Shown here: positions 33,880 to 48,309 of the stretch, in pieces
Numbering within the stretch: the stretch's first letter is position 1
Layout of the letters: each line of letters opens with the position of its first letter
IMG/VR virus record: IMGVR_UViG_3300044898_000090
Location: 1-60,343 of that record
Length of the DNA: 60,343 nucleotides
Strand: one strand, 5' to 3'
Origin: a virus
Lineage: Duplodnaviria > Caudoviricetes
The notes under the pieces: generated by a model
Seen by the model: only the letters and a program-made list of their open reading frames with translations
Databases searched by the model: none
What the model was told of the DNA's origin: nothing
Translations under genes and position numbers: made by a program

Positions 33880-36234
33880 TCAGCCGACGACTCGGACGAT
33901 CACGAAGCCGGAGCCGCCGTCGCCGCCTTTACCGCCCGCGCCCGGGCCTGCGCCTGCGTTCCAGGCGCCGCCGCCGCCGCCACCACCACCTGCTGAGGTG
34001 TTGGCTTCGGCGCTCGCGCCGGGTTCACCGGCCGTCGTAGCGGAGCTACCGGCCGTCCCCCCAGCGCCGCCGACAGTCTTCGAGCCCGCCGCGCTCGCGC
34101 CACCGCCTAGAGTCGCTGAGGATGTGCCGCCGCCGCCTCCTCCGCCGCCGGTCCAGCCCCAAGGGACGCCGCCTGCTTTACCGGAGCCGCCACCTTCAGC
34201 CGCCTGGTTCTGTTCAAACGTGCGCGTGTTGCCGCTCTGGTTTCCGAAGATCACCGCGAGCACGTTGGCCGCGCTGTTCGCGCCGCTGCCCTGACCTCGA
34301 CCGTCGGCCTTCGCTACAACGGCGATCCCCGTGCCGGTGACGGTCGTGTCTTTGCCCGCTTCTGCAGTTGACCCGGCTTTGCCTCCCGCCGCGCCACCGG
34401 CTCCGCCTTTGCCACCGGCACCCACTTTGATGTCCAGGGTCGTGTTCGCGCCGACCGTCACGACCTGCGTCGTGTAGCCCCCAGCCGTGCCGCCTGCGCC
34501 GCCCTTTTGTTCAGCGGTCGCCGAGGACGACCCGCCGCCTCCACCGCCTCCGCCGCCGCCGACGGCTGTGATCTCGAGCGTTTTGGCGTTATTGGGGATC
34601 GGCCATGCTGCGTTGGTGGCTGTCACGATCGTCGTGATCCCGAAGATGTCCCCTACTTCTTTTGGGGTCGCCGTGACGTCCTGCCGCGCGAAGTTCAACC
34701 CACCGGAGACGGTCAGTGCGCCGGAGACCTTGCCGACAAACGCGACCACCCGGCCGTAATGGCAGGTGCCGTAGAGCACGTTGTTGGCGTCGAGGAGGTG
34801 TTTTTCGGTTTTGAACCATTCGCTGGCTTTGCCGTCCTCGATGTCCCACAGGGCAATGACAAGCTGCGCCGGGTTCGCGGTCGGGAGAGAGATCGCGCCT
34901 TCCGTCGGAGACCAGCTCGCGATGTGGTTGTTGCAATGCTGCGTATCGAGGCGGTCCAGATAGGCCGAGTGGCCGTCGTTGCCCGCATACTGTTCGTTGC
35001 CGGTGATCCCTAGGCCGACAACGCATTCGGTGGCGGTGACTTTGTCGGCGTAGCCGAGGGCCGAGTTCATCACGACCCCGACATAACAGCCGTGGCCGGT
35101 GACCTGCCCTATGTTCATGCTGCCGTTGTCGCTCTCGGGGAGGCGAATCCCAAAGCTCCAAACGTGTGTCGGCTGGCCGCCCGCTGAGGCCGTCACGTTG
35201 TCCATGCCGAAGATCTTGCCGACACGCGACAGGTCGATCCCGCCGATCGTGGGGTTTACCGGGAGCTGCACCGTGATCCCGTACATCTCGATCTGGGCGC
35301 GGGAGAAGTTCGCGTTTTTGCCCAGCACCTCCGACGTCGGGCCGCCGATTACTGACGGGGCGCCGTGTTCGGCGGAGTAGGTGCAGGCCGGCCCTTCGTA
35401 TTTGATGTTGGTCCCACCGACCGCGCCTTCAATGCGGATCTGCGTGACCGGGCCACCAGCTTTGTAGTTCGGGAAGCACACGCAGGCGTTGCCGCCGTAG
35501 TCAGTGCGGGGTGCCGACGTGATGTGGTATTCGAGGCCGAGGATGATGCGGGCCTTGGGAACCGCCGCCGCGGCGTCCCAGCATTCCTGGAGCGCTTTCG
35601 CGTCGTCCGCTGTCGTCCCAGCGCCGTAGTCCTCGGGGCGGAATAACGCCCAGCCAGTAACGGCCGTGAGCGGCAACTCCGCAGCGGGTAGCCTCGTGCC
35701 GTCGTCGAGTGTCGCTACCCCGCCTGCCGCCCCCTTCTGTGAGAGGGGGACCGAGGCGGCTTGTGCGGCTGCTGCTGCCCCTGCTGTGTCGAAGTCGGTT
35801 GCGGGGTGTGTCGCGGCGGAGCCAAGGCCGAGGTTGGTTCGGGCTGTGGCGGCGTTGGGGAGGTCTGAGAGGTTGGATGCTTTGGCGAGCTTTCCGCCCT
35901 CGGCCGCTTCTGCCCGGGCCTGCTCTGTCGTGGCGCTCCCGGCAGCGTCAAAATCGGTTGAGGCGTGTGTGGCGGCCGTTCCTAGTCCGAGGCTGGCGCG
36001 AGCGGTCACGGCATTGGCAACATCGGAGAGGTTCGCGGCCTTGACGAGGAGGGTCCCCTCGGCGGTTTCTGCCCGGGTGCGCTCGGCGGCGATCGCCGCG
36101 AGTCGCGCGGTGGCCTCAGCGACGACCTGGCTGTCGGTGTATGCGCCGGAGGCGGCGTGCATCGCCTCGAGGTTCGCGGTGTCAATGTCGGGCGGGGCGT
36201 TGTCGTTCCAGCCGAAGGGGCTAATCGGGCTCAA
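33880..36234 (-). CDS. Virion appendage: NLSD repeats, beta-helix-like domain, Gly-rich C-terminus
   Basis: NLSD..ARxxLGLG.AATH twice; EDYGA..DD..ALQ; VGGGGGGG..GG.GFVIV. Confidence 0.75.
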   Translation of the reverse strand: MSPISPFGWNDNAPPDIDTANLEAMHAASGAYTDSQVVAEATARLAAIAAERTRAETAEGTLLVKAANLSDVANAVTARASLGLGTAATHASTDFDAAGSATTEQARAEAAEGGKLAKASNLSDLPNAATARTNLGLGSAATHPATDFDTAGAAAAAQAASVPLSQKGAAGGVATLDDGTRLPAAELPLTAVTGWALFRPEDYGAGTTADDAKALQECWDAAAAVPKARIILGLEYHITSAPRTDYGGNACVCFPNYKAGGPVTQIRIEGAVGGTNIKYEGPACTYSAEHGAPSVIGGPTSEVLGKNANFSRAQIEMYGITVQLPVNPTIGGIDLSRVGKIFGMDNVTASAGGQPTHVWSFGIRLPESDNGSMNIGQVTGHGCYVGVVMNSALGYADKVTATECVVGLGITGNEQYAGNDGHSAYLDRLDTQHCNNHIASWSPTEGAISLPTANPAQLVIALWDIEDGKASEWFKTEKHLLDANNVLYGTCHYGRVVAFVGKVSGALTVSGGLNFARQDVTATPKEVGDIFGITTIVTATNAAWPIPNNAKTLEITAVGGGGGGGGGGSSSATAEQKGGAGGTAGGYTTQVVTVGANTTLDIKVGAGGKGGAGGAAGGKAGSTAEAGKDTTVTGTGIAVVAKADGRGQGSGANSAANVLAVIFGNQSGNTRTFEQNQAAEGGGSGKAGGVPWGWTGGGGGGGGTSSATLGGGASAAGSKTVGGAGGTAGSSATTAGEPGASAEANTSAGGGGGGGGAWNAGAGPGAGGKGGDGGSGFVIVRVVG

Positions 36235-37624
36235 TGGTGTCTCTCCTTGGGTACAGCCCGATCCTTGGGTAGAGCCCTTTGCGGGGTCGCAGCCCGATGG
36301 CGATGCGGTGTCCGTGGCGGGGGGCGACGAGACCGGCGGCCTCGGCTGGGGTGACCGTCCCGGCTTTCTGCCGTGGGTTGACGAGGCCGGGGAGCGTGAT
36401 GATCCGTGACGGGGTGCCGATCGTGACGGTGCAGACCGCGCTGGAGGTGCTCGACGCGGGGTTCAGGGGAACCTGGGTGGCGGCGGTGAGCCCCATCGTC
36501 GCGGAGCTCGTGCTCGCTGCTGGCGAGAGCGGCACCTGTGTCGCGGCCGTGAGGGACATCGATGCCGCGCTCGTCGACACGGCGGGGTTCAACGGCACGA
36601 CAGTGGGCGTGCTGCCGACCGTGACGGTTGCCTGCGCCGAGCTGGTGCTGGACGCTGGCTGCAACGGGATCTGGGTCGCGGCGCTGACCGCCATTGACGC
36701 GGAGCTCGTGCTGGATGCCGGGGACAGGGGGATCTGTGTAGCGGCGGTGACTGCGGCGGACGCGGAGCTCGCGCTGACCGCGGGCGATAGCGGGACCTGC
36801 GTGGCGGCGGTCACGGCCGCTGTGGCGGCGCTCGCGCTCGCGGCGGCCTGCAGGGGTATCTGCGTGGCGGCGCTCACAGCCGCGCTGGCGGCCGAGGAGG
36901 ACGCTGCGGGGCTCAGGGGGACCTGTGTTGCTGCCGTGACCGCCATTGAGGCTGAGGACGACGAGGACGCGGGGTTCAAAGGGATCGCTACGCCGGTCGC
37001 GGCTGGTTTGATCGCGACGACGAGTATCCCGGCGCCTTTAGACGTTTCCCAGTTCGCGGTGAACGTCACCGCCGCGAGGGTCGTCCCGGGGATGTAGGAG
37101 CCCGCCATGCAGCGCGTCGAGGCGGTTTCGACGTTCGTCATCGGCCCGGTGCCGGTCCACGCGCTAATCGTGCCCGTCGCCGCCGCCCCGTCACTCACCG
37201 CGGCGAGGACAATGTCGCCGGCGTCGGTGGTCGTGATCGCGTTCGACGTGATCGTTTTCACAGACACGGCGTTGTCTTTGTTGTTGATGACGTCGACCGT
37301 TTCGGACGCGCCTGACAGCTCGAAGTAGGAGATGCCCTGTATCGCGCCGCCCGCCCCCACCGTCGGGTTTAGTTCCGTCTCACCACCGACGGCGATCTTC
37401 ATCGCAACCCACAGCGAGTTAGCGGACGCCGCGTTTAGCGCCTTCGTGGCGTTCACCGTCCAGCCCGTCGAGCCGCTTTTCTGGTCTTTGCCCGTCGGGG
37501 CCGACACGGATGCGGTCTGTGAGATGAACGCGACCAGCAGGTTCCCAGCCGTCGCGCTCGTGATGGTGAGCGTCGAAGCTACCGCCGACCCGGTCTGCTT
37601 CTTGTTGACGACCGCAGCGGCCAT
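36221..37624 (-). CDS. Virion fiber-like protein with nine ~21-aa repeats
   Basis: Q(V/I)PL.PA.S.S.AS...TAAT repeats; GLYP repeats at the C-terminus. Confidence 0.75.
   Translation of the reverse strand: MAAAVVNKKQTGSAVASTLTITSATAGNLLVAFISQTASVSAPTGKDQKSGSTGWTVNATKALNAASANSLWVAMKIAVGGETELNPTVGAGGAIQGISYFELSGASETVDVINNKDNAVSVKTITSNAITTTDAGDIVLAAVSDGAAATGTISAWTGTGPMTNVETASTRCMAGSYIPGTTLAAVTFTANWETSKGAGILVVAIKPAATGVAIPLNPASSSSSASMAVTAATQVPLSPAASSSAASAAVSAATQIPLQAAASASAATAAVTAATQVPLSPAVSASSASAAVTAATQIPLSPASSTSSASMAVSAATQIPLQPASSTSSAQATVTVGSTPTVVPLNPAVSTSAASMSLTAATQVPLSPAASTSSATMGLTAATQVPLNPASSTSSAVCTVTIGTPSRIITLPGLVNPRQKAGTVTPAEAAGLVAPRHGHRIAIGLRPRKGLYPRIGLYPRRDTIEPD
36415..36990. repeat. Degenerate ~63-bp coding tandem repeats (9 units)
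   Basis: Seen in the translation. Confidence 0.8.
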
Positions 37625-39234: not shown

Positions 39235-39852
39235 CTAGGAGACGAACAGCAGCGGCGCGACGGCCTTCGCCGCGGGCGTCACGATCGTCGCGGCGGCTTT
39301 CCCGGCAAGCGCCGCGCCGGCGGTCGCGGAGAGGAACAGCGGGCCGTTGGTGAACCACTGGTAGCCGATCGCCGTGGGGATCGACACGACGGCCGCGGTC
39401 GGCACGGTCGCGGCGGTCACGCAGACCTCGGCGTAGAGGAAGCCGTTCGGCGCGTTCGCGGCGGTGACTTCCACTTCGGATTCGAGGGTGAACGTGAACG
39501 GTTTGGACGCGGCGATCGCCGCGGCTACCCCGTCCGCGGACTGGGCGAGCAGCGCCGGGACGGCGAGCCCGGAGTACAGCGCGGCGAAGCTGTGTGTCGG
39601 GGTGACTGCCGCTGTCGCACCGACCAGCATCGCGATCTTGCTGAGCTTGTCGCCGATCTCGACTGGGATCGGGACGAAGCAGCCGACGTCTGTGGCGGCG
39701 AGCGCCCCGTCTGTCGGGTTGGCGAGCCCCAGCCACTCGAGGTTCGAGCGCTGGCTGCGGTTTGCCTGCTGCACCTGGCCGGCCTGGCCGAGCAGCTTGC
39801 GGAATGGGTATGTGGTCGGGTAGCCGGCGGCCACCAGATCTGATCCGGGCAT
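39235..39852 (-). CDS. Putative capsid decoration protein
   Basis: Immediately after the capsid gene; AAGGAG RBS. Confidence 0.55.
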   Translation of the reverse strand: MPGSDLVAAGYPTTYPFRKLLGQAGQVQQANRSQRSNLEWLGLANPTDGALAATDVGCFVPIPVEIGDKLSKIAMLVGATAAVTPTHSFAALYSGLAVPALLAQSADGVAAAIAASKPFTFTLESEVEVTAANAPNGFLYAEVCVTAATVPTAAVVSIPTAIGYQWFTNGPLFLSATAGAALAGKAAATIVTPAAKAVAPLLFVS

Positions 39853-39890: not shown

Positions 39891-39922
39891 AGGGAAACCC
39901 CCGGCCAGAGCCGGGGGGTCCC
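39891..39922 (-). terminator. Hairpin after the major capsid gene
   Basis: CCCCCGGC-CAGA-GCCGGGGG. Confidence 0.55.
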
Positions 39923-39936
39923 AAGTGGTGGTCGGT

Positions 39937-41646
39937 CTAGTACGGCGTTTTGTCTTCGGTTTCCGGCGCGGCGAAACCGGTGCCGGAGCCGATCGTCACT
40001 GACGGCCCGTAGCGCTGCAGCAGCGCGACGTAGTTGTAGAGCCGGAACCTGATCTCCAGGGTGCCGGAGAGCGTCTGGTCGAAGATGTCCGTGCGGACGT
40101 CTCCCTCCATCAGCCACAGGTCGTCCCAGATCGCGCCGATCGCGATGTCCGCCGCGCCGGCGCCGGGAACACCGGCGGCGTCGTTGGTCGGCATGTTCGC
40201 GTCGATGTAGATCTTGGGGCCGAACGGCACTTTGCCCAGCAGCCCCTCGAACGGCGCCTGCTCGGCGTCGTAGAGGGCGTCAGCGTTGAAGTTGCTGAAC
40301 CCGGCGCCGTCCTGCCCGACGAGGAACCTGCCGACGGTGTCGACTGCGGTGAACGCCCAGAACCCGCGGCGGGGGTGAACGAGGAACGTGAAGTCCTGCA
40401 GGTTGAACCTCGTCTGGGCGGTCTTGGATGCCATCGCCCCGAGCACCTGGAAGAAGCCTTGTGCTTTCGGCGTCGCGGCGGTCCATGTGACCGCGTTGGC
40501 TTCCCAGTTGGTGTTCGGGTAGATGCCCTTGATTTCGCCACCGGACAGGGGGGCGCCGACGCCTTTGCCGGAGATCACCTGTTTGTCGAGGGCGACGTCG
40601 TAGGCGGCCATCATGTCGCGGGTGATCACCTGGTCGATGATCGTCCCGGGGGACTGCTCGAGCAGCTGGATCGGGATGTCCGCGAACCCGGCGATCGTCT
40701 TGACTGCCGCGTTGACGTAGTTGTCCTTGATGTCCTGCGTCACCACGGGCGCGTTGTCCGCCGTCTGGATCGCGACGGCGGTCGGCGTGGTGAGCTTCGG
40801 GATGTTGATCGAGTCCGTGCCCGGGGGGAGCGGCATCTGCCGGCACAGCGCAGCGGCCACGCGGCCCGGGCGGAGGTACTCGAGGTAGTCGGAGATGAGC
40901 CACAGCGGCGGTACCGCGTAGCCACCCTGGCCGGGTTCCCTGGAGGGTGCGCGTCTCTCGAACGGGCTGACGTCGAACCCGCGCCGCTCGATCCCGAGGC
41001 GCCCTCGGGTCTCCATCTCGGCGTGTTCGATCTGTCGTTCGGCGGCGCGTGCGCGTTGCTGCGCGCGCTTCGGCAGGATGTCGTCCATCATCCTGCCGTG
41101 CTTCTCGAGGCGCTCCTGGAAGCCCTCGATCTTGGAGCCGAGGTGCTCCCGGAGGTCCGGGCGCATCCTGGCCGCGAGGTCAAGGTAGTAGGAGGCGCTC
41201 TTCGCCTCCCGGTCGCGGCCGTACACCTCTGATTCGCGGGTCAGGGCGACGCCTGCTTCGCGCCCGCTGGCGCGGGTGGCGAGATCGCGGCCGCGCTCGA
41301 CCAGTTCCTGCCGCTCGATCCGAAGGTCGAGCGACTTGATCTCTTTGAGCTTCGCCTGGACGTCCTTGTTGAAGCGCTCCTCCGCCTCAACGAACGCAGC
41401 GCGCTCCTCGTCGGAGGGCTTCTCGTCGTCTTTCTCGGCGGCGTCGCGCGCCTCGAACTCCTCGTGCTCTTTCTCGCGCGCCTCGATCAGCGGGGCGACC
41501 TCGTCGGTCAGCTCCGCACGGCGGTCGAGCATCTTCTGCAGCAGGGTCCGCTCGTCTGTCTCCGGCTCCGTGAGGGTCGGGTCGCCGCCTGCAATTCTCG
41601 GCAGCGGGCTGCCCCACCGCTTTTCGGCCTTGGTCTGGTTTCGCAT
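39937..41646 (-). CDS. Major capsid protein (HK97 fold, N-terminal delta domain)
   Basis: Coiled-coil N-terminus; GGYAVPP..KTIAG..QLLEQS..LDKQVISGKG..IYID.NMP. Confidence 0.9.
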   Translation of the reverse strand: MRNQTKAEKRWGSPLPRIAGGDPTLTEPETDERTLLQKMLDRRAELTDEVAPLIEAREKEHEEFEARDAAEKDDEKPSDEERAAFVEAEERFNKDVQAKLKEIKSLDLRIERQELVERGRDLATRASGREAGVALTRESEVYGRDREAKSASYYLDLAARMRPDLREHLGSKIEGFQERLEKHGRMMDDILPKRAQQRARAAERQIEHAEMETRGRLGIERRGFDVSPFERRAPSREPGQGGYAVPPLWLISDYLEYLRPGRVAAALCRQMPLPPGTDSINIPKLTTPTAVAIQTADNAPVVTQDIKDNYVNAAVKTIAGFADIPIQLLEQSPGTIIDQVITRDMMAAYDVALDKQVISGKGVGAPLSGGEIKGIYPNTNWEANAVTWTAATPKAQGFFQVLGAMASKTAQTRFNLQDFTFLVHPRRGFWAFTAVDTVGRFLVGQDGAGFSNFNADALYDAEQAPFEGLLGKVPFGPKIYIDANMPTNDAAGVPGAGAADIAIGAIWDDLWLMEGDVRTDIFDQTLSGTLEIRFRLYNYVALLQRYGPSVTIGSGTGFAAPETEDKTPY

Positions 41647-41788
41647 GGGTGGTTCCTTTCGGGAGCCCTCACGGGCGTTGGTGACTCCCGGGTTGCGCGC
41701 CGGACCGGACAGGACCCGTGCGTGCCTACTTGGAGGGGCACACGGGGGCTGTACGGCGAAACGAGCTAGGCGGGTACTGCAAGTCGGG

Positions 41789-42970
41789 TTAGAAGCCAGC
41801 GACGGGCACCATGCCCGCGCCGGTGATGGCGCTGATCCCTGTTGGGTAGCGGCCGGTGACACCGACGACATAGCGCCGGGTCTGGATGCGTACGCCCATG
41901 GTGCCGGCGAGCGGCTGGGGCATCACGTCGATGATCGGGTCGGACTCGAGGATCATCAGGTCCGATGGGCAGCAGGCGAGGATCGGCTCCTGGCCGTTGG
42001 CGAGCGTCGGGATCCCGTCGTCAAGGTAGACGGGCCGGCTGGCGAGCCCTGCCGTCGGGAAGTCACCGGCGTAGTCGGAGAGCAGCAGCGGCCGTTCCTG
42101 TTTGTCCTCGGATGTGGCGATCCACGCGAACCGGGGGCTGTTGATCAGCCAGGCCTCCATGGGGATCTTGCGCTTGCGCCCGATCACGGCGATCGCCTTA
42201 CCGAGGACGGGGTAGAGCGTGGTGCCTTCGGCTGGGCCGGCGTAGGGGATCGCGTTGATGCCTTTCACGTTCAGCAGCCCGAGGATCTGGTTGACGCCCG
42301 TACCGTTGAGGAGCTGCTGCTCGAGCTGTTCCTGGTAGGCCGCTTCGAGTGCGAGCCCGACGAGCCAGTCGAGAGAGGCGCCGGCGGGTGACTGCTCGAG
42401 CATCGGGAGCGGCACGTCCTCGGTGCCGGCGATCGTCACGACCGGGTTCTTCGCCGCGGAGTCGGTGATGTCGGTGTCCGATACCGCGCTGTCTGGCGCC
42501 TGCGGCCGGGCGGATGGGCCGCTTCCAGTGAGGACCGGCAGGTTGATTTCCTGGGGGCCCTTCGGCAGCAGAAAGTTCGGTGCGAGCCTACCGAGCACCC
42601 TCTCAGGTCGCGGGATGTCGGCGAAGTACTTGATCATCCACATCGGGGGGGCGAAGTAGCCGCCTTCTCCAGGGTTCCAGCTGGGGGTGACGCGCACCTC
42701 GAACGGCGTGTCGACGGCGAGCATGGCGCGGAGCTCCCGGTCGCGCATGTCGACACGCCACTCAACGGCATGCCGCTGCAGGCGCTCCTCTGCCGCGGGG
42801 CTCTCGCCGCGCGCGGCGAGGAACCGGTCCTGGAAGTAGGAGTGCTCGCCGTGGAGCTCGTAGGTGCGGGGCTCCCGGATGCTCCGGTAGTCGCCGTTCC
42901 GGGCGTGCGCGAGGAGATCCTCGGTGCTCGCAGTGGAGAGGTCCAGGCCGGTCTCCGTGCTGCCGGTCAT
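41789..42970 (-). CDS. Second HK97-fold capsid paralog
   Basis: GGYFAPP..VTIAG..MLEQSP..LEQQLLNGTG..PVYLD. Confidence 0.85.
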   Translation of the reverse strand: MTGSTETGLDLSTASTEDLLAHARNGDYRSIREPRTYELHGEHSYFQDRFLAARGESPAAEERLQRHAVEWRVDMRDRELRAMLAVDTPFEVRVTPSWNPGEGGYFAPPMWMIKYFADIPRPERVLGRLAPNFLLPKGPQEINLPVLTGSGPSARPQAPDSAVSDTDITDSAAKNPVVTIAGTEDVPLPMLEQSPAGASLDWLVGLALEAAYQEQLEQQLLNGTGVNQILGLLNVKGINAIPYAGPAEGTTLYPVLGKAIAVIGRKRKIPMEAWLINSPRFAWIATSEDKQERPLLLSDYAGDFPTAGLASRPVYLDDGIPTLANGQEPILACCPSDLMILESDPIIDVMPQPLAGTMGVRIQTRRYVVGVTGRYPTGISAITGAGMVPVAGF

Positions 42971-44304
42971 CGCCCACCTCCGAGTGCCACGAGCTGTAGG
43001 CGCGCCCGCTTCGTGTAGTCGGGTAGCGGGATCACCTTGCGCTCGGCGCCGCGGTCCTCGGGCTCAGGGTCGGGGTCCGGCTCCGGGGCCGTGGCGCCCA
43101 GCATCTCGGCGAGCACGGCGCGTCTCTCGCCGTCGTCCTCACGCGCGAGGGCGTTGAGAGCCTCTGTGAGCGCTTCCATCGTGGCTGCGCTGAGCGGCTC
43201 GCCGGCGCGCATCTCGGCGCGCTGGACGAAACCGCCGAACACGGCCTCGCCGCCGAGCGACTCGAGGATGGCCGTGGCCTGCTCGGAGCGGATGGTGGCG
43301 GTGGTGGTGGGGCTCGCGCCGTAGGAGACGACTGACACGTCACCGCGGTGAATGTCGAGGGACTTGATGCTGCGGTTGCTGTAGTCGTCGTTCCAGTCTT
43401 CGTCGATCGACCGGAACGCGAAGCTCATCTCGGTGACGTCTCCGCGGCGCATCTTCGGCTCGAGGGCGCGGACGTCGGGGTCCTCGGGGTCGAGCTCAGC
43501 TTCGACGAAGAGCCCCTTGTCGGTCTCGCGGAGTTTCAGGGTGCCGGACGTGGTGCGCGCGAGCGGCAGCCCTGTGTGGTTCACGAGCAGTTGGACGTCG
43601 AGGTCGTCCTTGTTGAGGCTCCGCTTGAAGGCGCCCCGCTCGATCGTCTCCGTGTAGAAGCCGACGGGGTAGGGCACGCCGGTGACGGACGCGATCCCGG
43701 TGAGGACGAGCACGTCTGTGCCGTCGTCATCCGAGCGCACCTCGAGAGCGGTGTCCGTGATCGGCACAGACCGGCGCTCCGGCCGACCCTTGGCCGGCGC
43801 GTGCGCCTTGCGCCACTCGATGTCCTTCGCGCCTTTCTGACGTTCGACGTATTCGGTGACGGGGCGCACCTTGACGGCCTCCCCGAGCACGATCTTGTTC
43901 TCGTCGTCGTATTCGAACGGCGCGGAGTAGAGGTCTCCGCACATGTGGAAGATGACGGTGTAGGGGTTGTCCTCTTTCCCGCCGCCCATCCAGTCCTGCA
44001 CCCACACGTACCACGACGAGTAGTAGTAGCGGTCGGGCTCAGGGTCTGGGTAGGCGTCTGCGATTGCGCCTTCGAGCGCGGTGAAGACGTCGTTGGCGGT
44101 ATCGCGCTGCTCGACCGTGACCCACACGCTCTTGGTCTCCTTGAGCGTGCCGTCCTCCCGCCAGTTATCGGGGACCAGGCCGGGGATGCCAGCCTTGTCC
44201 GCCTCGGCGATCGTGTGCCTGCGGGCGATGTCGTAGCTCGCGTCCGCCCGGGCCATGCTCTGGATCGCTTCTCTAACCGTCTTTTCGCGCTCGGCTTTGG
44301 TCAT
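42967..44304 (-). CDS. HK97 prohead protease with N-terminal extension
   Basis: ETIERGAF..LLVNH..LART.SGTL.L..D.GL..MSFAF..DVSVVSYGA. Confidence 0.9.
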   Translation of the reverse strand: MTKAEREKTVREAIQSMARADASYDIARRHTIAEADKAGIPGLVPDNWREDGTLKETKSVWVTVEQRDTANDVFTALEGAIADAYPDPEPDRYYYSSWYVWVQDWMGGGKEDNPYTVIFHMCGDLYSAPFEYDDENKIVLGEAVKVRPVTEYVERQKGAKDIEWRKAHAPAKGRPERRSVPITDTALEVRSDDDGTDVLVLTGIASVTGVPYPVGFYTETIERGAFKRSLNKDDLDVQLLVNHTGLPLARTTSGTLKLRETDKGLFVEAELDPEDPDVRALEPKMRRGDVTEMSFAFRSIDEDWNDDYSNRSIKSLDIHRGDVSVVSYGASPTTTATIRSEQATAILESLGGEAVFGGFVQRAEMRAGEPLSAATMEALTEALNALAREDDGERRAVLAEMLGATAPEPDPDPEPEDRGAERKVIPLPDYTKRARLQLVALGGGR

Positions 44305-45584
44305 GCTGTACCTCCGGTCACGCCGGAATCGGGTTCGCCGCCGCCGAGCTGGGCAGGCGGTTCCTTCGCCGTGGCTTCCGCCGCGGCTACTTGCGCCAGG
44401 GCCGCCTGTAGCAGCTCTGTGTTGATCGGTGCGAAGAACGTTTTGCCCTGGCCTTCGGGCGCCTCGGGCATGTCGAACAGCGCCCTTACCTCGTCCGCGC
44501 ACCAGGCGCCGGCGAGCATCATCAGCGAGCCGGCCTGCGCGCGCTGCAGCGTGTCGCCACGTAGACGGTGGTTCAGGTCCAGGTTGACGTACTGGCCGGG
44601 CGGGTGGAGGGCCGTGAGCGACTCCTGCAGCCGTCCGATGTAGTCCTGGAGCGTGTTGCGGGTGTACCCGAGCTCCTGCTGCTCGACGCCGGTCCCCCAC
44701 GAGGTGGTGCGGTCGACCAGGCCGATCATGTGCGGCGGGATTCGGTAGATCATGCCGCTGATCTCGCCGGCCGAGAAGCCCCTGGACTGCAGGAACTGTG
44801 AGTCCTCGGGGGTGATCGTGACCGGCTTGAACGTCGCGCCATCGGTGAGGACGGCGGGGAGGTTCGCGTTGTTGATCCCCTGGTGAGCGCTCAGCCAGCT
44901 CGCGAGCATGGCCTTCGTCTCGTTGCGCTCGAGTTTGCCCGCGACCTCGATCACCCCGGCGGGGTAGGCCGCGTTTTTGAAGAAGCTCTCTCCGAACCGG
45001 GCCTGCTCGAGCGACAGGCTGAACGTGAGACGCAGTGACTGGATCGGGTTGACGCCCTCGAGCATCCCGGGCATCGAGAGCATCTTGACGTGGAAGACGT
45101 CGTCGATCGGGATCGGCTTATTGAAGAAGCGGTACTCGATCTGCCCTTCCCGGTTCCGTTTGACCTTCACGTTGTCGGCGGGGACAGGCTTGATCTGTGT
45201 CGCGTACAGGTTCCGGTCACGGTCGATGATGTGGCCGTAAAAGTTGCCGCGCAGCGCCAGGCCCGCGACGAACTGCACCATCCAGTCCAGGAGGCTGATC
45301 TCCGCGTACGGTTCTGTGATCAGTGGGGATGCCGGCAGCTCTTTGGCGTTCCGCAGGATCTTGTTGTCGACCAGGCGCAAGGGCAGCGTCGCGATCGAGC
45401 TCGTCAGCAGCCCCACGCAGCCGTACACCGCGGCGATCTGCAGCGCCGAGTTCTGCGTCACACCAACGCCGCCGTCCATCGACCCCGGCGGCGGAGGGAC
45501 GGTCGACGGGCCCCAGGGCACCGCTCCGCTGACCGCCCGGACCTCTCGGTTACCGGTCGGTGTTGCCAACACGAGACCCGACAT
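44301..45584 (-). CDS. HK97-family portal protein
   Basis: ALQIAAVYGCV..LALRGN..FFKNAAYPAG..DSQFL..IPPHMIG. Confidence 0.93.
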   Translation of the reverse strand: MSGLVLATPTGNREVRAVSGAVPWGPSTVPPPPGSMDGGVGVTQNSALQIAAVYGCVGLLTSSIATLPLRLVDNKILRNAKELPASPLITEPYAEISLLDWMVQFVAGLALRGNFYGHIIDRDRNLYATQIKPVPADNVKVKRNREGQIEYRFFNKPIPIDDVFHVKMLSMPGMLEGVNPIQSLRLTFSLSLEQARFGESFFKNAAYPAGVIEVAGKLERNETKAMLASWLSAHQGINNANLPAVLTDGATFKPVTITPEDSQFLQSRGFSAGEISGMIYRIPPHMIGLVDRTTSWGTGVEQQELGYTRNTLQDYIGRLQESLTALHPPGQYVNLDLNHRLRGDTLQRAQAGSLMMLAGAWCADEVRALFDMPEAPEGQGKTFFAPINTELLQAALAQVAAAEATAKEPPAQLGGGEPDSGVTGGTA

Positions 45585-46238: not shown

Positions 46239-47774
46239 TTAGAGTTCGCCGTCGGCTTCCATTTCGGCCTTCAGCTCATTCAGATCGATGACTTCGGGTT
46301 TGGGCGCCTGGAGCGTCTGGGAGCCCCAGTGCGCGAGCGTGACCGCGACGAGCGGGGATATGTCCACGGCGGACGATTTGCGCGACCACGCCCACGCGTC
46401 GCCGAGTGGGCGCTTGACGGCGCCGGCGATCGCCTGCTCGAGCTCGCGCGTCCCGAGGTGCCTCAGTGTGTCCTGGTCGACAGCGTCGTAGAGAAGGCCG
46501 CATGCCTGCGCCTGCTCCTTCGCGTTCACGAGCGTTACCTCGATCCCGGCCTCCGCGAGCTCGGCGAGTAGCGACGCCGCCGGGCCGCTCGCATCGCACA
46601 CCACGGCGACTGGTTTGTGACTGACGACGAGTCCCGCGACGCGCTCGACCATCCAGCCGGTGCCGCGCTTGTGCTCAATGATCTCGACGTGACAACGTCG
46701 ATCTGGTCGCGGGCCGGCGACGCCGATGGCGCCGTGGGATCGGTCGGGCGTGACGTCCAGGGCGAAGCAGACAGGGTTGAGGGCTGAGGACTCGCGGTCG
46801 ATCCGCGACGCCCATGCCTCCGGTGTGATGACAACACCGTCGAGTCCGTCGGTGCGCGGCCAGTCGCCGACTCCCAGGCGCTCTACCGCGAAGGTGCGCG
46901 GATCCATAGATCGCTGCTCCCGAGCGACATGCTCTGTCGTGATCCTGATCCCGAGACCGGGGTTCGCTTCCGCCCAGCGCTTCGGGTCTTCAGCCATCGC
47001 CCGAGTCACCTCAGCGGGGTTGCCAGCGTCGACGGAATGCTCGAAGTAAGCGAGCGACGGGTCGCCGCCAACCAGCGCGCGCTCTCGAAGCCTGGCTAGC
47101 GCGACACCCTCGTCGTGGACCTCCTGGTCAACCGCTGACGCCGCGTACATGACCTGCGGGTTCGGCCTGGCCGAGAGTGTCGGGAGGAGCGCGCCGACCG
47201 TGGCCTCGGGGAGGATCATCGCCTCGTCGAGGCCGAGCCAGTCGGCGGTGAACCCACGGCCGCCGCCTTTGGTGCGGGTGCGGAACCGGATGCGCTGGCG
47301 AAGCCCTGTGCGCGGGTTCTTCTTGAGCTCGATGCCCTCCTCGCCGTGCGACTTGGAGACCCGGTCGACGCGCCGATCGAACTCGGGCGTGTCTTCGATC
47401 AGCATGAGGAGCCGGCGGAACCCCTCAAGCGACGTGTCGAACTGATGCGCGGAGTGGATCAGCAGGCGCTCGTCGAGCAGGAACAGCCCGGTGAGCTCGC
47501 GCGCCTCAAGGATCGAGCCCTTCCCGTTCTGCCTCGGAACGACAACGCCGACCTCGAACGCCGCCCACTTGTGGTCGGCGCGTTCGCCGAGCGACTCCGT
47601 GAGGATGTACTCCTCCCACGGGTCGAGGCTGAGCCCCGCCATCCGGCACAGCTCGATCGCTTCGGACCCGGCGGACGAGACATACTGCGGGACCCAGCAG
47701 ATCCGTGGGCGCTGAATCCCGAGCGGCTCAGGTACCTGCAATCCGGTCGGCGCGACTAGCGCTGAGGGCGTCAA
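46239..47774 (-). CDS. terL: Terminase large subunit
   Basis: VPRQNGKG Walker A; LDEA Walker B; ANPGLG; ALDV..; DISPLVA. Confidence 0.93.
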   Translation of the reverse strand: MTPSALVAPTGLQVPEPLGIQRPRICWVPQYVSSAGSEAIELCRMAGLSLDPWEEYILTESLGERADHKWAAFEVGVVVPRQNGKGSILEARELTGLFLLDERLLIHSAHQFDTSLEGFRRLLMLIEDTPEFDRRVDRVSKSHGEEGIELKKNPRTGLRQRIRFRTRTKGGGRGFTADWLGLDEAMILPEATVGALLPTLSARPNPQVMYAASAVDQEVHDEGVALARLRERALVGGDPSLAYFEHSVDAGNPAEVTRAMAEDPKRWAEANPGLGIRITTEHVAREQRSMDPRTFAVERLGVGDWPRTDGLDGVVITPEAWASRIDRESSALNPVCFALDVTPDRSHGAIGVAGPRPDRRCHVEIIEHKRGTGWMVERVAGLVVSHKPVAVVCDASGPAASLLAELAEAGIEVTLVNAKEQAQACGLLYDAVDQDTLRHLGTRELEQAIAGAVKRPLGDAWAWSRKSSAVDISPLVAVTLAHWGSQTLQAPKPEVIDLNELKAEMEADGEL

Positions 47775-48309
47775 GCTGGTCCGTCCCTTCCTCCTCTGGC
47801 GCCAGCTCGCGTAGGCGGTTGATCGTCTCGCGCAGCTCGCGCGTGCACATGGACTTCGACGTCGCCGAGTTGTAGGGGTGCGCGATCTCGTACGCCAGAG
47901 CGACGGCTGCTCGAGCGAGACCTGATTCCCCGAGCGCCTTGTCCCGCCTCTTGATCGCCGCGACATCCCGCTCGGCGCCCGTGATCACATCGGTGCGCCC
48001 GGAGAGAATGAGAGGCTCGGGGAAGAGCTGCTCGGCGACGCTCGTCGGCAGCTCGATGAGCGTCCGGCTGCCGAAGATGCCGAAGATGCTGATGACTCGC
48101 GCGCCGAGGGAGTGGAGGTCGCCTGTGACTGGCGTCTTCTTCGCCGTCGGTTTTCGCTTGGCCGGCTTCCGCTTGACAGGTTTCGTCACTTTGCGCGCAG
48201 CTGGCCTCCCCGGCGTTGCTCTACGCCTGGGTTTGACGACCGGTGCTTCCCGAGCTGCGGGCTTGCGCGGGGACGGTTTCCTGGCGACCGGCTTCTTGGC
48301 CGGCATCAC
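47728..48309 (-). CDS. terS: Terminase small subunit with Lys/Arg-rich N-terminus
   Basis: Upstream of TerL; LA.EI..RELRET..DQLDAL.A.R. Confidence 0.75.
   Translation of the reverse strand: MMPAKKPVARKPSPRKPAAREAPVVKPRRRATPGRPAARKVTKPVKRKPAKRKPTAKKTPVTGDLHSLGARVISIFGIFGSRTLIELPTSVAEQLFPEPLILSGRTDVITGAERDVAAIKRRDKALGESGLARAAVALAYEIAHPYNSATSKSMCTRELRETINRLRELAPEEEGTDQLDALSASRADRIAGT

Follow-up and report, generated by a model that had tools for sequence, protein, structure and literature searches.

Why does the head gene module of a 60-kb provirus contain two different genes for a major capsid protein (MCP) of the HK97 fold, and what would each of the two products contribute to the shell? The question was raised by IMG/VR record IMGVR_UViG_3300044898_000090, a soil provirus of 60,343 bp which is rated as complete by CheckV and whose entire length, with an overall GC content of about 67%, is called the window in the following. 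A preliminary reading of the letters and open reading frames (ORFs), referred to here as the sequence-only reading, had recognised two divergent capsid genes in tandem, coding for a copy of 393 aa (MCP1) and one of 569 aa (MCP2), and had proposed a minor paralog serving as a vertex protein or switching the size or surface of the capsid. Judged from the comparisons reported below, the pair is real, ancient, conserved and selected. The best-supported mechanism is a split between hexons and pentons, and we consider the chance that MCP2 is the hexon protein and MCP1 a dedicated penton protein to be slightly better than even. The genes follow each other in the order portal, S78 protease, MCP1, MCP2, and the features of the pair are:

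42967-44304, minus strand: prohead serine protease S78, 445 aa counted from MTKAERE (PF04586, E 1.2e-25; phrog_80, E 1.3e-42)
42977-42981, minus strand: ribosome-binding motif GGAGG of MCP1, within the 3' end of the protease gene, read from the sequence
41789-42970, minus strand: MCP1, 393 aa, HK97-fold paralog and candidate penton (vertex) protein (PF05065, E 3.1e-13)
42692-42970, minus strand: N-terminal region of MCP1, residues 1-93, short helical and propeptide- or delta-like, up to a conserved F-E-x-R motif (from the helices predicted by AlphaFold2 (AF2) and the MCP1 family alignment A2)
41647-41788, minus strand: spacer or leader between MCP1 and MCP2, 142 nt, with a hairpin of -16.2 kcal/mol (folding z -2.0)
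41653-41659, minus strand: ribosome-binding motif AAAGGAA of MCP2, 6 nt before the ATG, from the sequence
39937-41646, minus strand: MCP2, 569 aa, HK97 fold with fused scaffold, candidate hexon protein (PF05065, E 1.4e-09; phrog_2263, E 7.8e-31)
40948-41646, minus strand: N-terminal scaffold or delta domain of MCP2, residues 1-233, with long helices (AF2 model)
39893-39922, minus strand: GC-rich hairpin followed by TTT, 14 nt past the MCP2 stop (-22.6 kcal/mol; z -2.1)

Both copies were confirmed as capsid genes. A BLASTP alignment of MCP1 with MCP2 showed 29% identity over 387 columns (E 7e-35), and all of the colinear motif pairs that had been noted before were located inside it. Both proteins matched the Pfam family PF05065 above its gathering cut-off of 24.2 bits (50.2 bits for MCP1 and 38.2 bits for MCP2) as well as phrog_2263, a family of major head proteins. 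Therefore, MCP1 and MCP2 are, as judged by sequence homology, related HK97-fold capsid proteins. An AF2 model of MCP1 calculated from the family alignment (mean pLDDT 78.4) adopted the HK97 fold, and its top Foldseek matches were the D3, HK97 and gene transfer agent (GTA) capsids, with E values from 2.7e-14 to 3e-13 and a probability of 1.00. The profile search of MCP1 against the PDB matched only HK97 gp5 and one other MCP (E 3e-4 to 3e-3), and no match to PDB chains was obtained with the MCP2 profile. The alignments used for these analyses contained 30 sequences of the MCP1 family (A2) and 33 of the MCP2 family (A1). The ORFs of both copies are open, with MCP2 counted from the ATG at 41646 within a maximal ORF of 644 aa, and their GC contents at third codon positions (GC3) of 0.89 for MCP1 and 0.87 for MCP2 represent the coding signature of the window. 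Together with the purifying selection in relatives described below, this bears out the claim that both copies are intact.

To place the pair among its relatives, DNA was fetched with the profiles of both families, and the stop-to-stop ORFs were scored with both profiles; a single-protein scan of genome contigs with MCP2 yielded no relative, so the relatives discussed here came from the profile scans. Both copies have many homologues in a large protein collection, and the contigs of the two sets are repeatedly of equal length. Among the 154 loci fetched with the MCP2 profile, 32 showed the order protease-MCP1-MCP2, with the MCP1-type ORF directly upstream on the same strand. Another 147 loci (L159-L305) were fetched with query P0151 and the MCP1 profile, many of them re-fetching the same contigs; they comprised 21 pairs, one pair cut by the contig end, 11 cases of an MCP1-type gene alone and 114 of a single undifferentiated MCP. 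A FastTree tree of the collected sequences contained 28 distinct rows for MCP2 and 27 for MCP1. The only known phages matched were Mycobacterium phages, whose MCPs were 26-33% identical to either copy, and each of the 61 matching phage records offered a single MCP place for either query. These single-MCP relatives belong to the mycobacteriophage clusters represented by Typha, Bipper, Omega and Baka and include the M. abscessus prophage prophiGD43A-5; Typha and prophiGD43A-5 exhibit a portal gene, an S78 protease gene, a gap of 190 nt and one MCP gene. More distant single-MCP loci were present in prophages of Streptomyces, Kitasatospora, Nocardia, Mycobacterium and others. Single MCPs score about equally on both family profiles, e.g., 412 and 400 bits. 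The closest genome match was a Solirubrobacteraceae metagenome-assembled genome (MAG; L085) with 68% identity, from which the hosts of the lineage appear to include Solirubrobacteraceae. A second MAG of this family (L117, 5992-7673) contains an MCP2-type gene that is fragmented into six short frames, and an MCP1 type was not seen there; either the prophage has decayed or the long-read assembly contains indel errors.

An IQ-TREE analysis of 78 core sequences placed all MCP1 proteins in one clade (support 100) and all MCP2 proteins in another (support 98), with the MCP of locus L020 as sister to the MCP2 clade (support 99). L020 (3724-7578) is a single-MCP phage with a portal gene, a gene for an S78 protease of 300 aa, a 120-nt gap and a gene for a 507-aa MCP, and among the loci at hand it comes closest to how such a genome would have looked before the gain of MCP1, or after its loss. 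Because the single-MCP relatives align to the scaffold domain of MCP2 from about residue 30, L020 is sister to the MCP2 clade and the order protease-gap-MCP is shared, MCP2 is best regarded by sequence as the ancestral-type copy. The origin of MCP1 may be explained by either an in situ duplication with subsequent acceleration or an acquisition from another lineage: forcing MCP1 and MCP2 into one clade costs 29.7 log-likelihood units, and the duplication is not rejected by the AU test (p 0.173).

The sequence-only reading had suggested co-conservation and dN/dS across relatives as checks, and both gave consistent answers. The patristic distances of the two paralogs in 21 genomes were correlated with a Mantel r of 0.76, a value reached in 0 of 2000 permutations, and MCP1 evolved about 1.4 times faster than MCP2. 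In comparison with the nearest relative (L005, 82-83% amino-acid identity), the dN/dS values were 0.18 and 0.20 for the cores of MCP1 and MCP2, respectively, and 0.35-0.38 in the N-terminal domains, although it weakens these figures that NG86 estimates are rough at GC3 near 0.9 and that dS is saturated for all pairs except that with L005. A decay of the second copy in relatives was not seen, as both copies are intact, co-conserved and under purifying selection; the recurrence of the pair in 32 of the 154 loci together with this selection ruled out a decaying duplicate.

The two proteins differ in their N-terminal domains. The AF2 model of MCP2 shows helices at residues 35-68, 79-128 and 176-217, and that of MCP1 shows helices at residues 16-24, 45-53 and 58-85 of an N-terminal part of about 93 residues, which BLASTP aligned to residues 182-233 of MCP2. 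Invariant residues in this part of the MCP1 family are Y37, S44, D48 and R63 (A2), which may be set against Y142, S152, D156 and R179 in the MCP2 family (A1). From these alignments, MCP1 keeps the proximal part of the delta domain and is without the distal part. The claim that the 393-aa copy lacks the long delta domain therefore holds for the distal part, but not for the approximately 93 N-terminal residues with their three helices. This remaining propeptide is close to the HK97 delta domain in length. Across the dual loci, MCP1 proteins have 371-499 aa and MCP2 proteins 531-618 aa, and MCP1 was the shorter one in all 19 loci with an assignable start. The Pfam and PHROG scans showed no scaffold family between the protease and the MCP genes.

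About 10 residues ahead of a G-x-G-G-Y sequence, MCP1, MCP2 and the single-MCP relatives share an F-E-x-R motif, which we read as the likely maturation site; the cleavage of the Nocturne116 capsid precursor after an arginine at its scaffold/MCP junction (see below) may be cited beside it. The same scaffold/core boundary is also the place where the MCP2 genes of relatives are interrupted (positions 217-220 of the A1 hidden Markov model (HMM)). Group I introns (RF00028) split the MCP2-type genes of L028 (4831-5089 and 6231-6448), L018 (5105-5339) and L045 (6639-6867), with scores of 53.9 (above gathering), 39, 46.7 and 42.3 bits and E values from 8e-8 to 2.7e-12. Three of these four matches are located at the boundary, and the second intron of L028 is at A1-HMM position ~303. 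The MCP2-type gene of L015 (6708-6750) shows a break at the 217-220 boundary as well; there, the reading frame changes across a gap of 42 nt. None of the MCP1-type genes was noticed to be interrupted. Among mycobacteriophages, those of cluster J are known to have introns in capsid genes.

The cores of the two paralogs differ as well, namely in the regions between the spine helix and the last P-domain strands. Given as group medians for MCP1, MCP2 and single MCPs, respectively, the A-domain loop after the second A-domain helix has 35, 46 and 42 residues (29 in MCP1 of the window), the region past the spine helix 31, 38 and 30 residues, a third loop 19, 23 and 19 residues, and the C-terminal tail 12, 18 and 12 residues. 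Taken together, loops and tail have grown by about 20 residues in MCP2, and about 7 residues were lost from MCP1. From the order of elements in the MCP1 model, the variable loops would lie in the A domain.

A similar pattern is found in phages with solved two-protein shells. In the M. abscessus siphophage Jabs, the hexons of a T=9 shell consist of MCPh (ORF72) and the pentons of MCPp (ORF73), according to the published description (bioRxiv 10.64898/2026.07.24.740622). As stated there, MCPh has 594 aa, of which the first 266 residues are absent from the virion, and contains a larger axial domain and a C-terminal extension forming the hexon turret; MCPp has 257 aa and a reduced axial domain and is 18% identical to MCPh. 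The authors of this account call a two-MCP shell unprecedented among icosahedral phages and mention in their discussion that T4 also uses two MCPs (same preprint). As far as the published description of the Jabs proteins goes, the likeness to the window extends to two adjacent HK97-fold paralogs in an actinobacterial phage, to a long copy with a large N-terminal domain (about 266 aa in MCPh, about 233 of 569 aa in MCP2) and to the trend in the A domain, with enlarged loops and a tail longer by 6 residues in MCP2 and a trimmed loop in MCP1. The differences are that the penton gene of Jabs follows the hexon gene and codes for no propeptide, whereas the short copy of the window comes first and overlaps the protease stop, that the identity between the copies is 18% there and 29% here, and that Jabs is a siphophage with disulfide cross-links. 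In contrast, the provirus of the window is predicted to be of the myovirus type because its structural module also includes sheath, tape measure and baseplate genes. Among other phages, a protein of Arthrobacter phage RazzB (PV876951) is annotated as "major capsid hexamer protein".

In the c2-like Lactococcus phage Nocturne116, according to its structure report of 2026, the MCP domain of ORF18 forms 50 hexamers and the vertex protein ORF19 forms 11 pentamers; the MCP is derived from a protease-scaffold-MCP polyprotein cleaved after Arg (R242|S243), and the vertex protein has 220 aa, 24% identity to the MCP and a shortened A-domain loop (PMC13595954). According to its authors, the two-protein capsid is apparently common to all c2-like phages, and Nocturne116 is described as a small virus (PMC13595954). 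This does not agree with the former view that a dual-MCP shell is unusual for a 60-kb phage, as such shells are no longer tied to large genomes. Nocturne116 resembles the window in the dedicated penton paralog encoded beside the MCP gene and in the shortened A-domain loop of the vertex protein. It differs, by the same description, in that its vertex protein is encoded downstream, is without scaffold and has lost most of the N-arm and part of the E-loop, and in that its head is prolate; in the window, the protease has a gene of its own, and the short copy is encoded upstream with an E-loop of full length.

The classical case is the myovirus T4, where, of two paralogous shell proteins of the HK97 fold, gp23 forms the hexamers and gp24, with its shorter propeptide, the pentamers, gene 24 following gene 23; T4 has a separate scaffolding core, a prolate head and a much larger genome. 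No sequence similarity of T4 proteins to MCP1 or MCP2 was observed, as matches to phages were confined to those of Mycobacterium. No penton paralog appears in the Goslar preprint. The reversed gene order, the partial propeptide that is retained and the coupling to the protease distinguish the pair of the window from the precedents.

From the trimmed A-domain loop of MCP1, the enlarged loops and tail of MCP2 and the pattern in the solved phages, we therefore tentatively assign MCP2 to the hexons and MCP1 to the pentons. The head shell would then be built from two specialised HK97-fold paralogs co-assembling in one shell. MCP2, with its ancestral architecture of a long helical scaffold fused to the core, would be the abundant hexon protein, and MCP1 would be a diverged copy, inserted behind the protease gene and ahead of the leader of the old MCP gene, that provides the protein of the eleven pentons. 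Both would probably enter the prohead via their N-terminal domains and be trimmed by the S78 protease after the shared F-E-x-R motif. The short N-terminal domain of MCP1, its trimmed loop, its faster rate and its coupling to a low-copy protease fit a penton role, as do the precedents of T4, Jabs and Nocturne116.

Whether both proteins share one shell without such a partition, either in mixed capsomers or with MCP1 at special positions such as the portal vertex, also had to be considered, because MCP1, with the propeptide's conserved part still present and an E-loop as long as that of MCP2, looks like a complete general-purpose subunit. Mixed shells of two HK97-fold paralogs are represented by the Family 2B encapsulin of the actinobacterium Streptomyces lydicus, whose two jointly encoded shell proteins co-assemble in a mixed, irregular tiling according to its description (bioRxiv 10.1101/2024.04.25.591138). 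However, this is a metabolic nanocompartment without portal, terminase or protease, whereas the pair of the window is part of a complete head module of a phage; a two-component encapsulin was ruled out by the surrounding portal, terminase, S78 protease, sheath, tape measure and baseplate genes. Moreover, all three tailed-phage cases with two paralogs that are considered here (Jabs, Nocturne116 and T4) are described as strictly partitioned between hexons and pentons, and the opposite changes in A-domain loop length fit different capsomer symmetries better than free mixing. We regard an unpartitioned shell as unlikely.

If MCP2 is the hexon and MCP1 the penton protein, they should be needed in very unequal amounts, and this stoichiometry would be set by the layout of the genes. 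The start codon of MCP1 and the stop codon of the protease gene (maximal ORF of 577 aa) overlap in the sequence ATGA, with GGAGG 6 nt upstream, which agrees with the claimed coupling of the 393-aa copy to the protease; the translation of MCP1 would be tied in this way to that of a low-copy enzyme. Of 20 dual loci, 15 have this overlap in the form ATGA or GTGA and another 2 in the form TGATG or TAATG; in the remaining three, there is a 3-nt gap (L006), a 206-nt gap (L010) or an MCP1-type gene without assignable start (L012). A spacer precedes MCP2 in all 20 loci, with 23-426 nt as counted to the first candidate start. The 142-nt leader of the window folds only modestly better than shuffled sequences. 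MCP2 would thus have its own leader and ribosome-binding site, and its message would end in a stable hairpin. A hairpin at least as stable as -20 kcal/mol comes after MCP2 in 13 of the 20 loci and after MCP1 in 2, and the one 3' of MCP2 in the window is a candidate for a terminator-like element or a stabiliser of the mRNA 3' end. With its short T run, this hairpin escaped a consensus scan for terminators. Of the ribosome-binding site, leader and terminator formerly ascribed to the 569-aa copy, the first two and a hairpin are therefore present, but the hairpin is not recognised as a terminator. No sigma-70-type promoter was found in a consensus scan, and an Rfam scan of the window showed no RNA family. 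Among the listed sequencing runs, none of RNA contains the stretch, and the one DNA run that does may be its own source.

The gene layout also bears on a reversed assignment, in which MCP1 with its N-terminal domain of about 93 aa would form the hexons and MCP2 the pentons or an assembly nucleator. The HK97 delta domain of about 100 aa suffices for a T=7 shell, a length consistent with the 385 aa of 3qpr_A, the MCP1-type proteins stand alone in some elements and so may form hexamers, and MCP1 has the stronger ribosome-binding motif, GGAGG. Against this, MCP2 is closest to the single-MCP relatives in architecture and tree and evolves more slowly, its gene is followed by the kind of 3' hairpin that is typical where a head operon ends in an abundant product, and the group I introns interrupt only the MCP2 copy. 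In the descriptions of the solved Jabs and Nocturne116 shells, it is also the longer, scaffold-bearing copy that serves as the hexon protein. Such a reversal of roles appears very improbable.

Several observations weigh against MCP1 as a penton protein and MCP2 as a hexon protein. The AF2 model of full-length MCP2 is poor (mean pLDDT 61.6), and because of this the fold assignment of MCP2 rests on its homology to MCP1. The E-loop region is of equal length in MCP1 and MCP2 of the window. Unlike those of Jabs MCPp, the Nocturne116 vertex protein and T4 gp24, the MCP1 gene is upstream of the long copy, and unlike these proteins, MCP1 retains a propeptide of about 93 aa that is conserved; the MCP1 proteins of four dual loci even have 482-499 aa, with an N-terminal domain of up to about 190 residues. 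A further point is the presence of MCP1-type genes without an MCP2-type gene in five distinct loci whose downstream sequence extends for 2 kb or more:

L159, 7184-9389, chromosome of the cultured strain Paraconexibacter antarcticus 02-257: AAA_25, 206-aa S78 protease, 462-aa MCP1-type protein, NlpC/P60
L177, 6551-13165: transposase, MCP1 type, sigma-like protein, integrase
L246, 4352-10767, 18-kb viral contig: TerS, MCP1 type, sigma region 4 protein, WhiB
L254, 1318-4134: MCP1 type, then 419-aa S78 protease (L255 is the same gene)
L205, 4373-9923: TerL-like protein, MCP1-like protein, then protease

In the FastTree tree, L177, L246 and L254 are inside a 99-supported subclade with eight paired MCP1 genes, and the nodes that group L159 and L205 with paired MCP1 genes have supports of 93 and 92. 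No homologue of the portal gene or of the gene of about 205 aa that follows MCP2 (see below) was found by tblastn in the fetched stretches of the five loci. By their gene content, these loci may be satellite-like or cryptic islands. The MCP1 type may be capable of forming a shell by itself, which would weaken a strict penton-only reading, or the islands may depend on the hexon protein of a helper; their existence argues against a protein family that is restricted to pentons. The vertex role proposed for the minor paralog by the sequence-only reading thus fits the sequence evidence and the precedents, but has to accommodate the MCP1-type genes without MCP2 in the islands.

One way of accounting for these islands is that the two proteins belong to two different shells, MCP1 making a smaller or satellite-related capsid or representing a spare copy which the phage does not need for its own head. 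In favour of this idea, small integrative or satellite-like islands have an MCP1-type gene without its partner, and such genes branch among the paired MCP1 genes in the tree; L020 illustrates that an MCP2-type protein can be the sole MCP. However, the position of MCP1 between protease and MCP2 is fixed in all 32 dual loci, and 17 of 20 loci show the coupling of its start to the protease. The co-divergence of the paralogs and the purifying selection on MCP1 point to a function in the same head-assembly pathway, and a redundant copy would not remain intact at identities as low as about 40%. We therefore consider separate shells or a dispensable copy quite unlikely. The islands may also be reconciled with a penton role, if MCP1 is a curvature-setting vertex subunit that was repeatedly captured by satellite-like islands and shrinks the hexon shells of their helpers. 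The island's own penton protein, sometimes together with its own protease, would then make the helper's hexon protein close smaller shells. This is a speculative idea to which we give little chance; if true, the capture of penton proteins by islands would represent a new route of capsid-size hijacking.

The capsid genes of the window are part of a full structural module, which Pfam and PHROG scans revealed on the minus strand from 47966 down to about 19000. Its other genes near the pair are:

46239-47966, minus strand: large terminase TerL (Pfam/PHROG)
44301-45584, minus strand: portal (Pfam/PHROG)
39235-39852, minus strand: gene of about 205 aa directly 3' of MCP2, conserved in relatives

The last of these matched no Pfam or PHROG family, and tblastn detected a homologue after MCP2 in 5 of 5 dual loci checked, with 45-74% identity; its product could be a decoration, cement or head-completion protein. 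In the protease, about 175 residues ahead of the S78 domain matched no Pfam or PHROG family, and the enzyme has only 300 aa in L020 and 206 aa in L159. Further downstream, a 467-aa protein (36221-37624) consists mostly of Ala/Ser/Thr-rich repeats of about 17 residues (AATQVPLSPA.S.S.AS) and is followed by a Gly-rich protein of 784 aa (33880-36234) with a match to the tail-fibre family phrog_2282. The site of this repeat protein and the fibre-like protein, between the head genes and the sheath gene, is unusual for fibre genes.

The use of one protein for the faces and a paralog for the corners of a head was long regarded as a peculiarity of T4; in 2026, such shells were solved for Jabs and for a c2-like phage of Lactococcus. 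A further large lineage of uncultivated proviruses appears to have reached a two-paralog shell separately, which suggests that the split is a recurrent solution to the problem of quasi-equivalence and not a rarity. The single-MCP phage L020, the dual-MCP phages and the MCP1-only islands provide a natural series for studying how a capsid protein comes to prefer fivefold or sixfold positions. Predictors of capsid size and annotation pipelines which assume one MCP per genome would mislabel such a pair.

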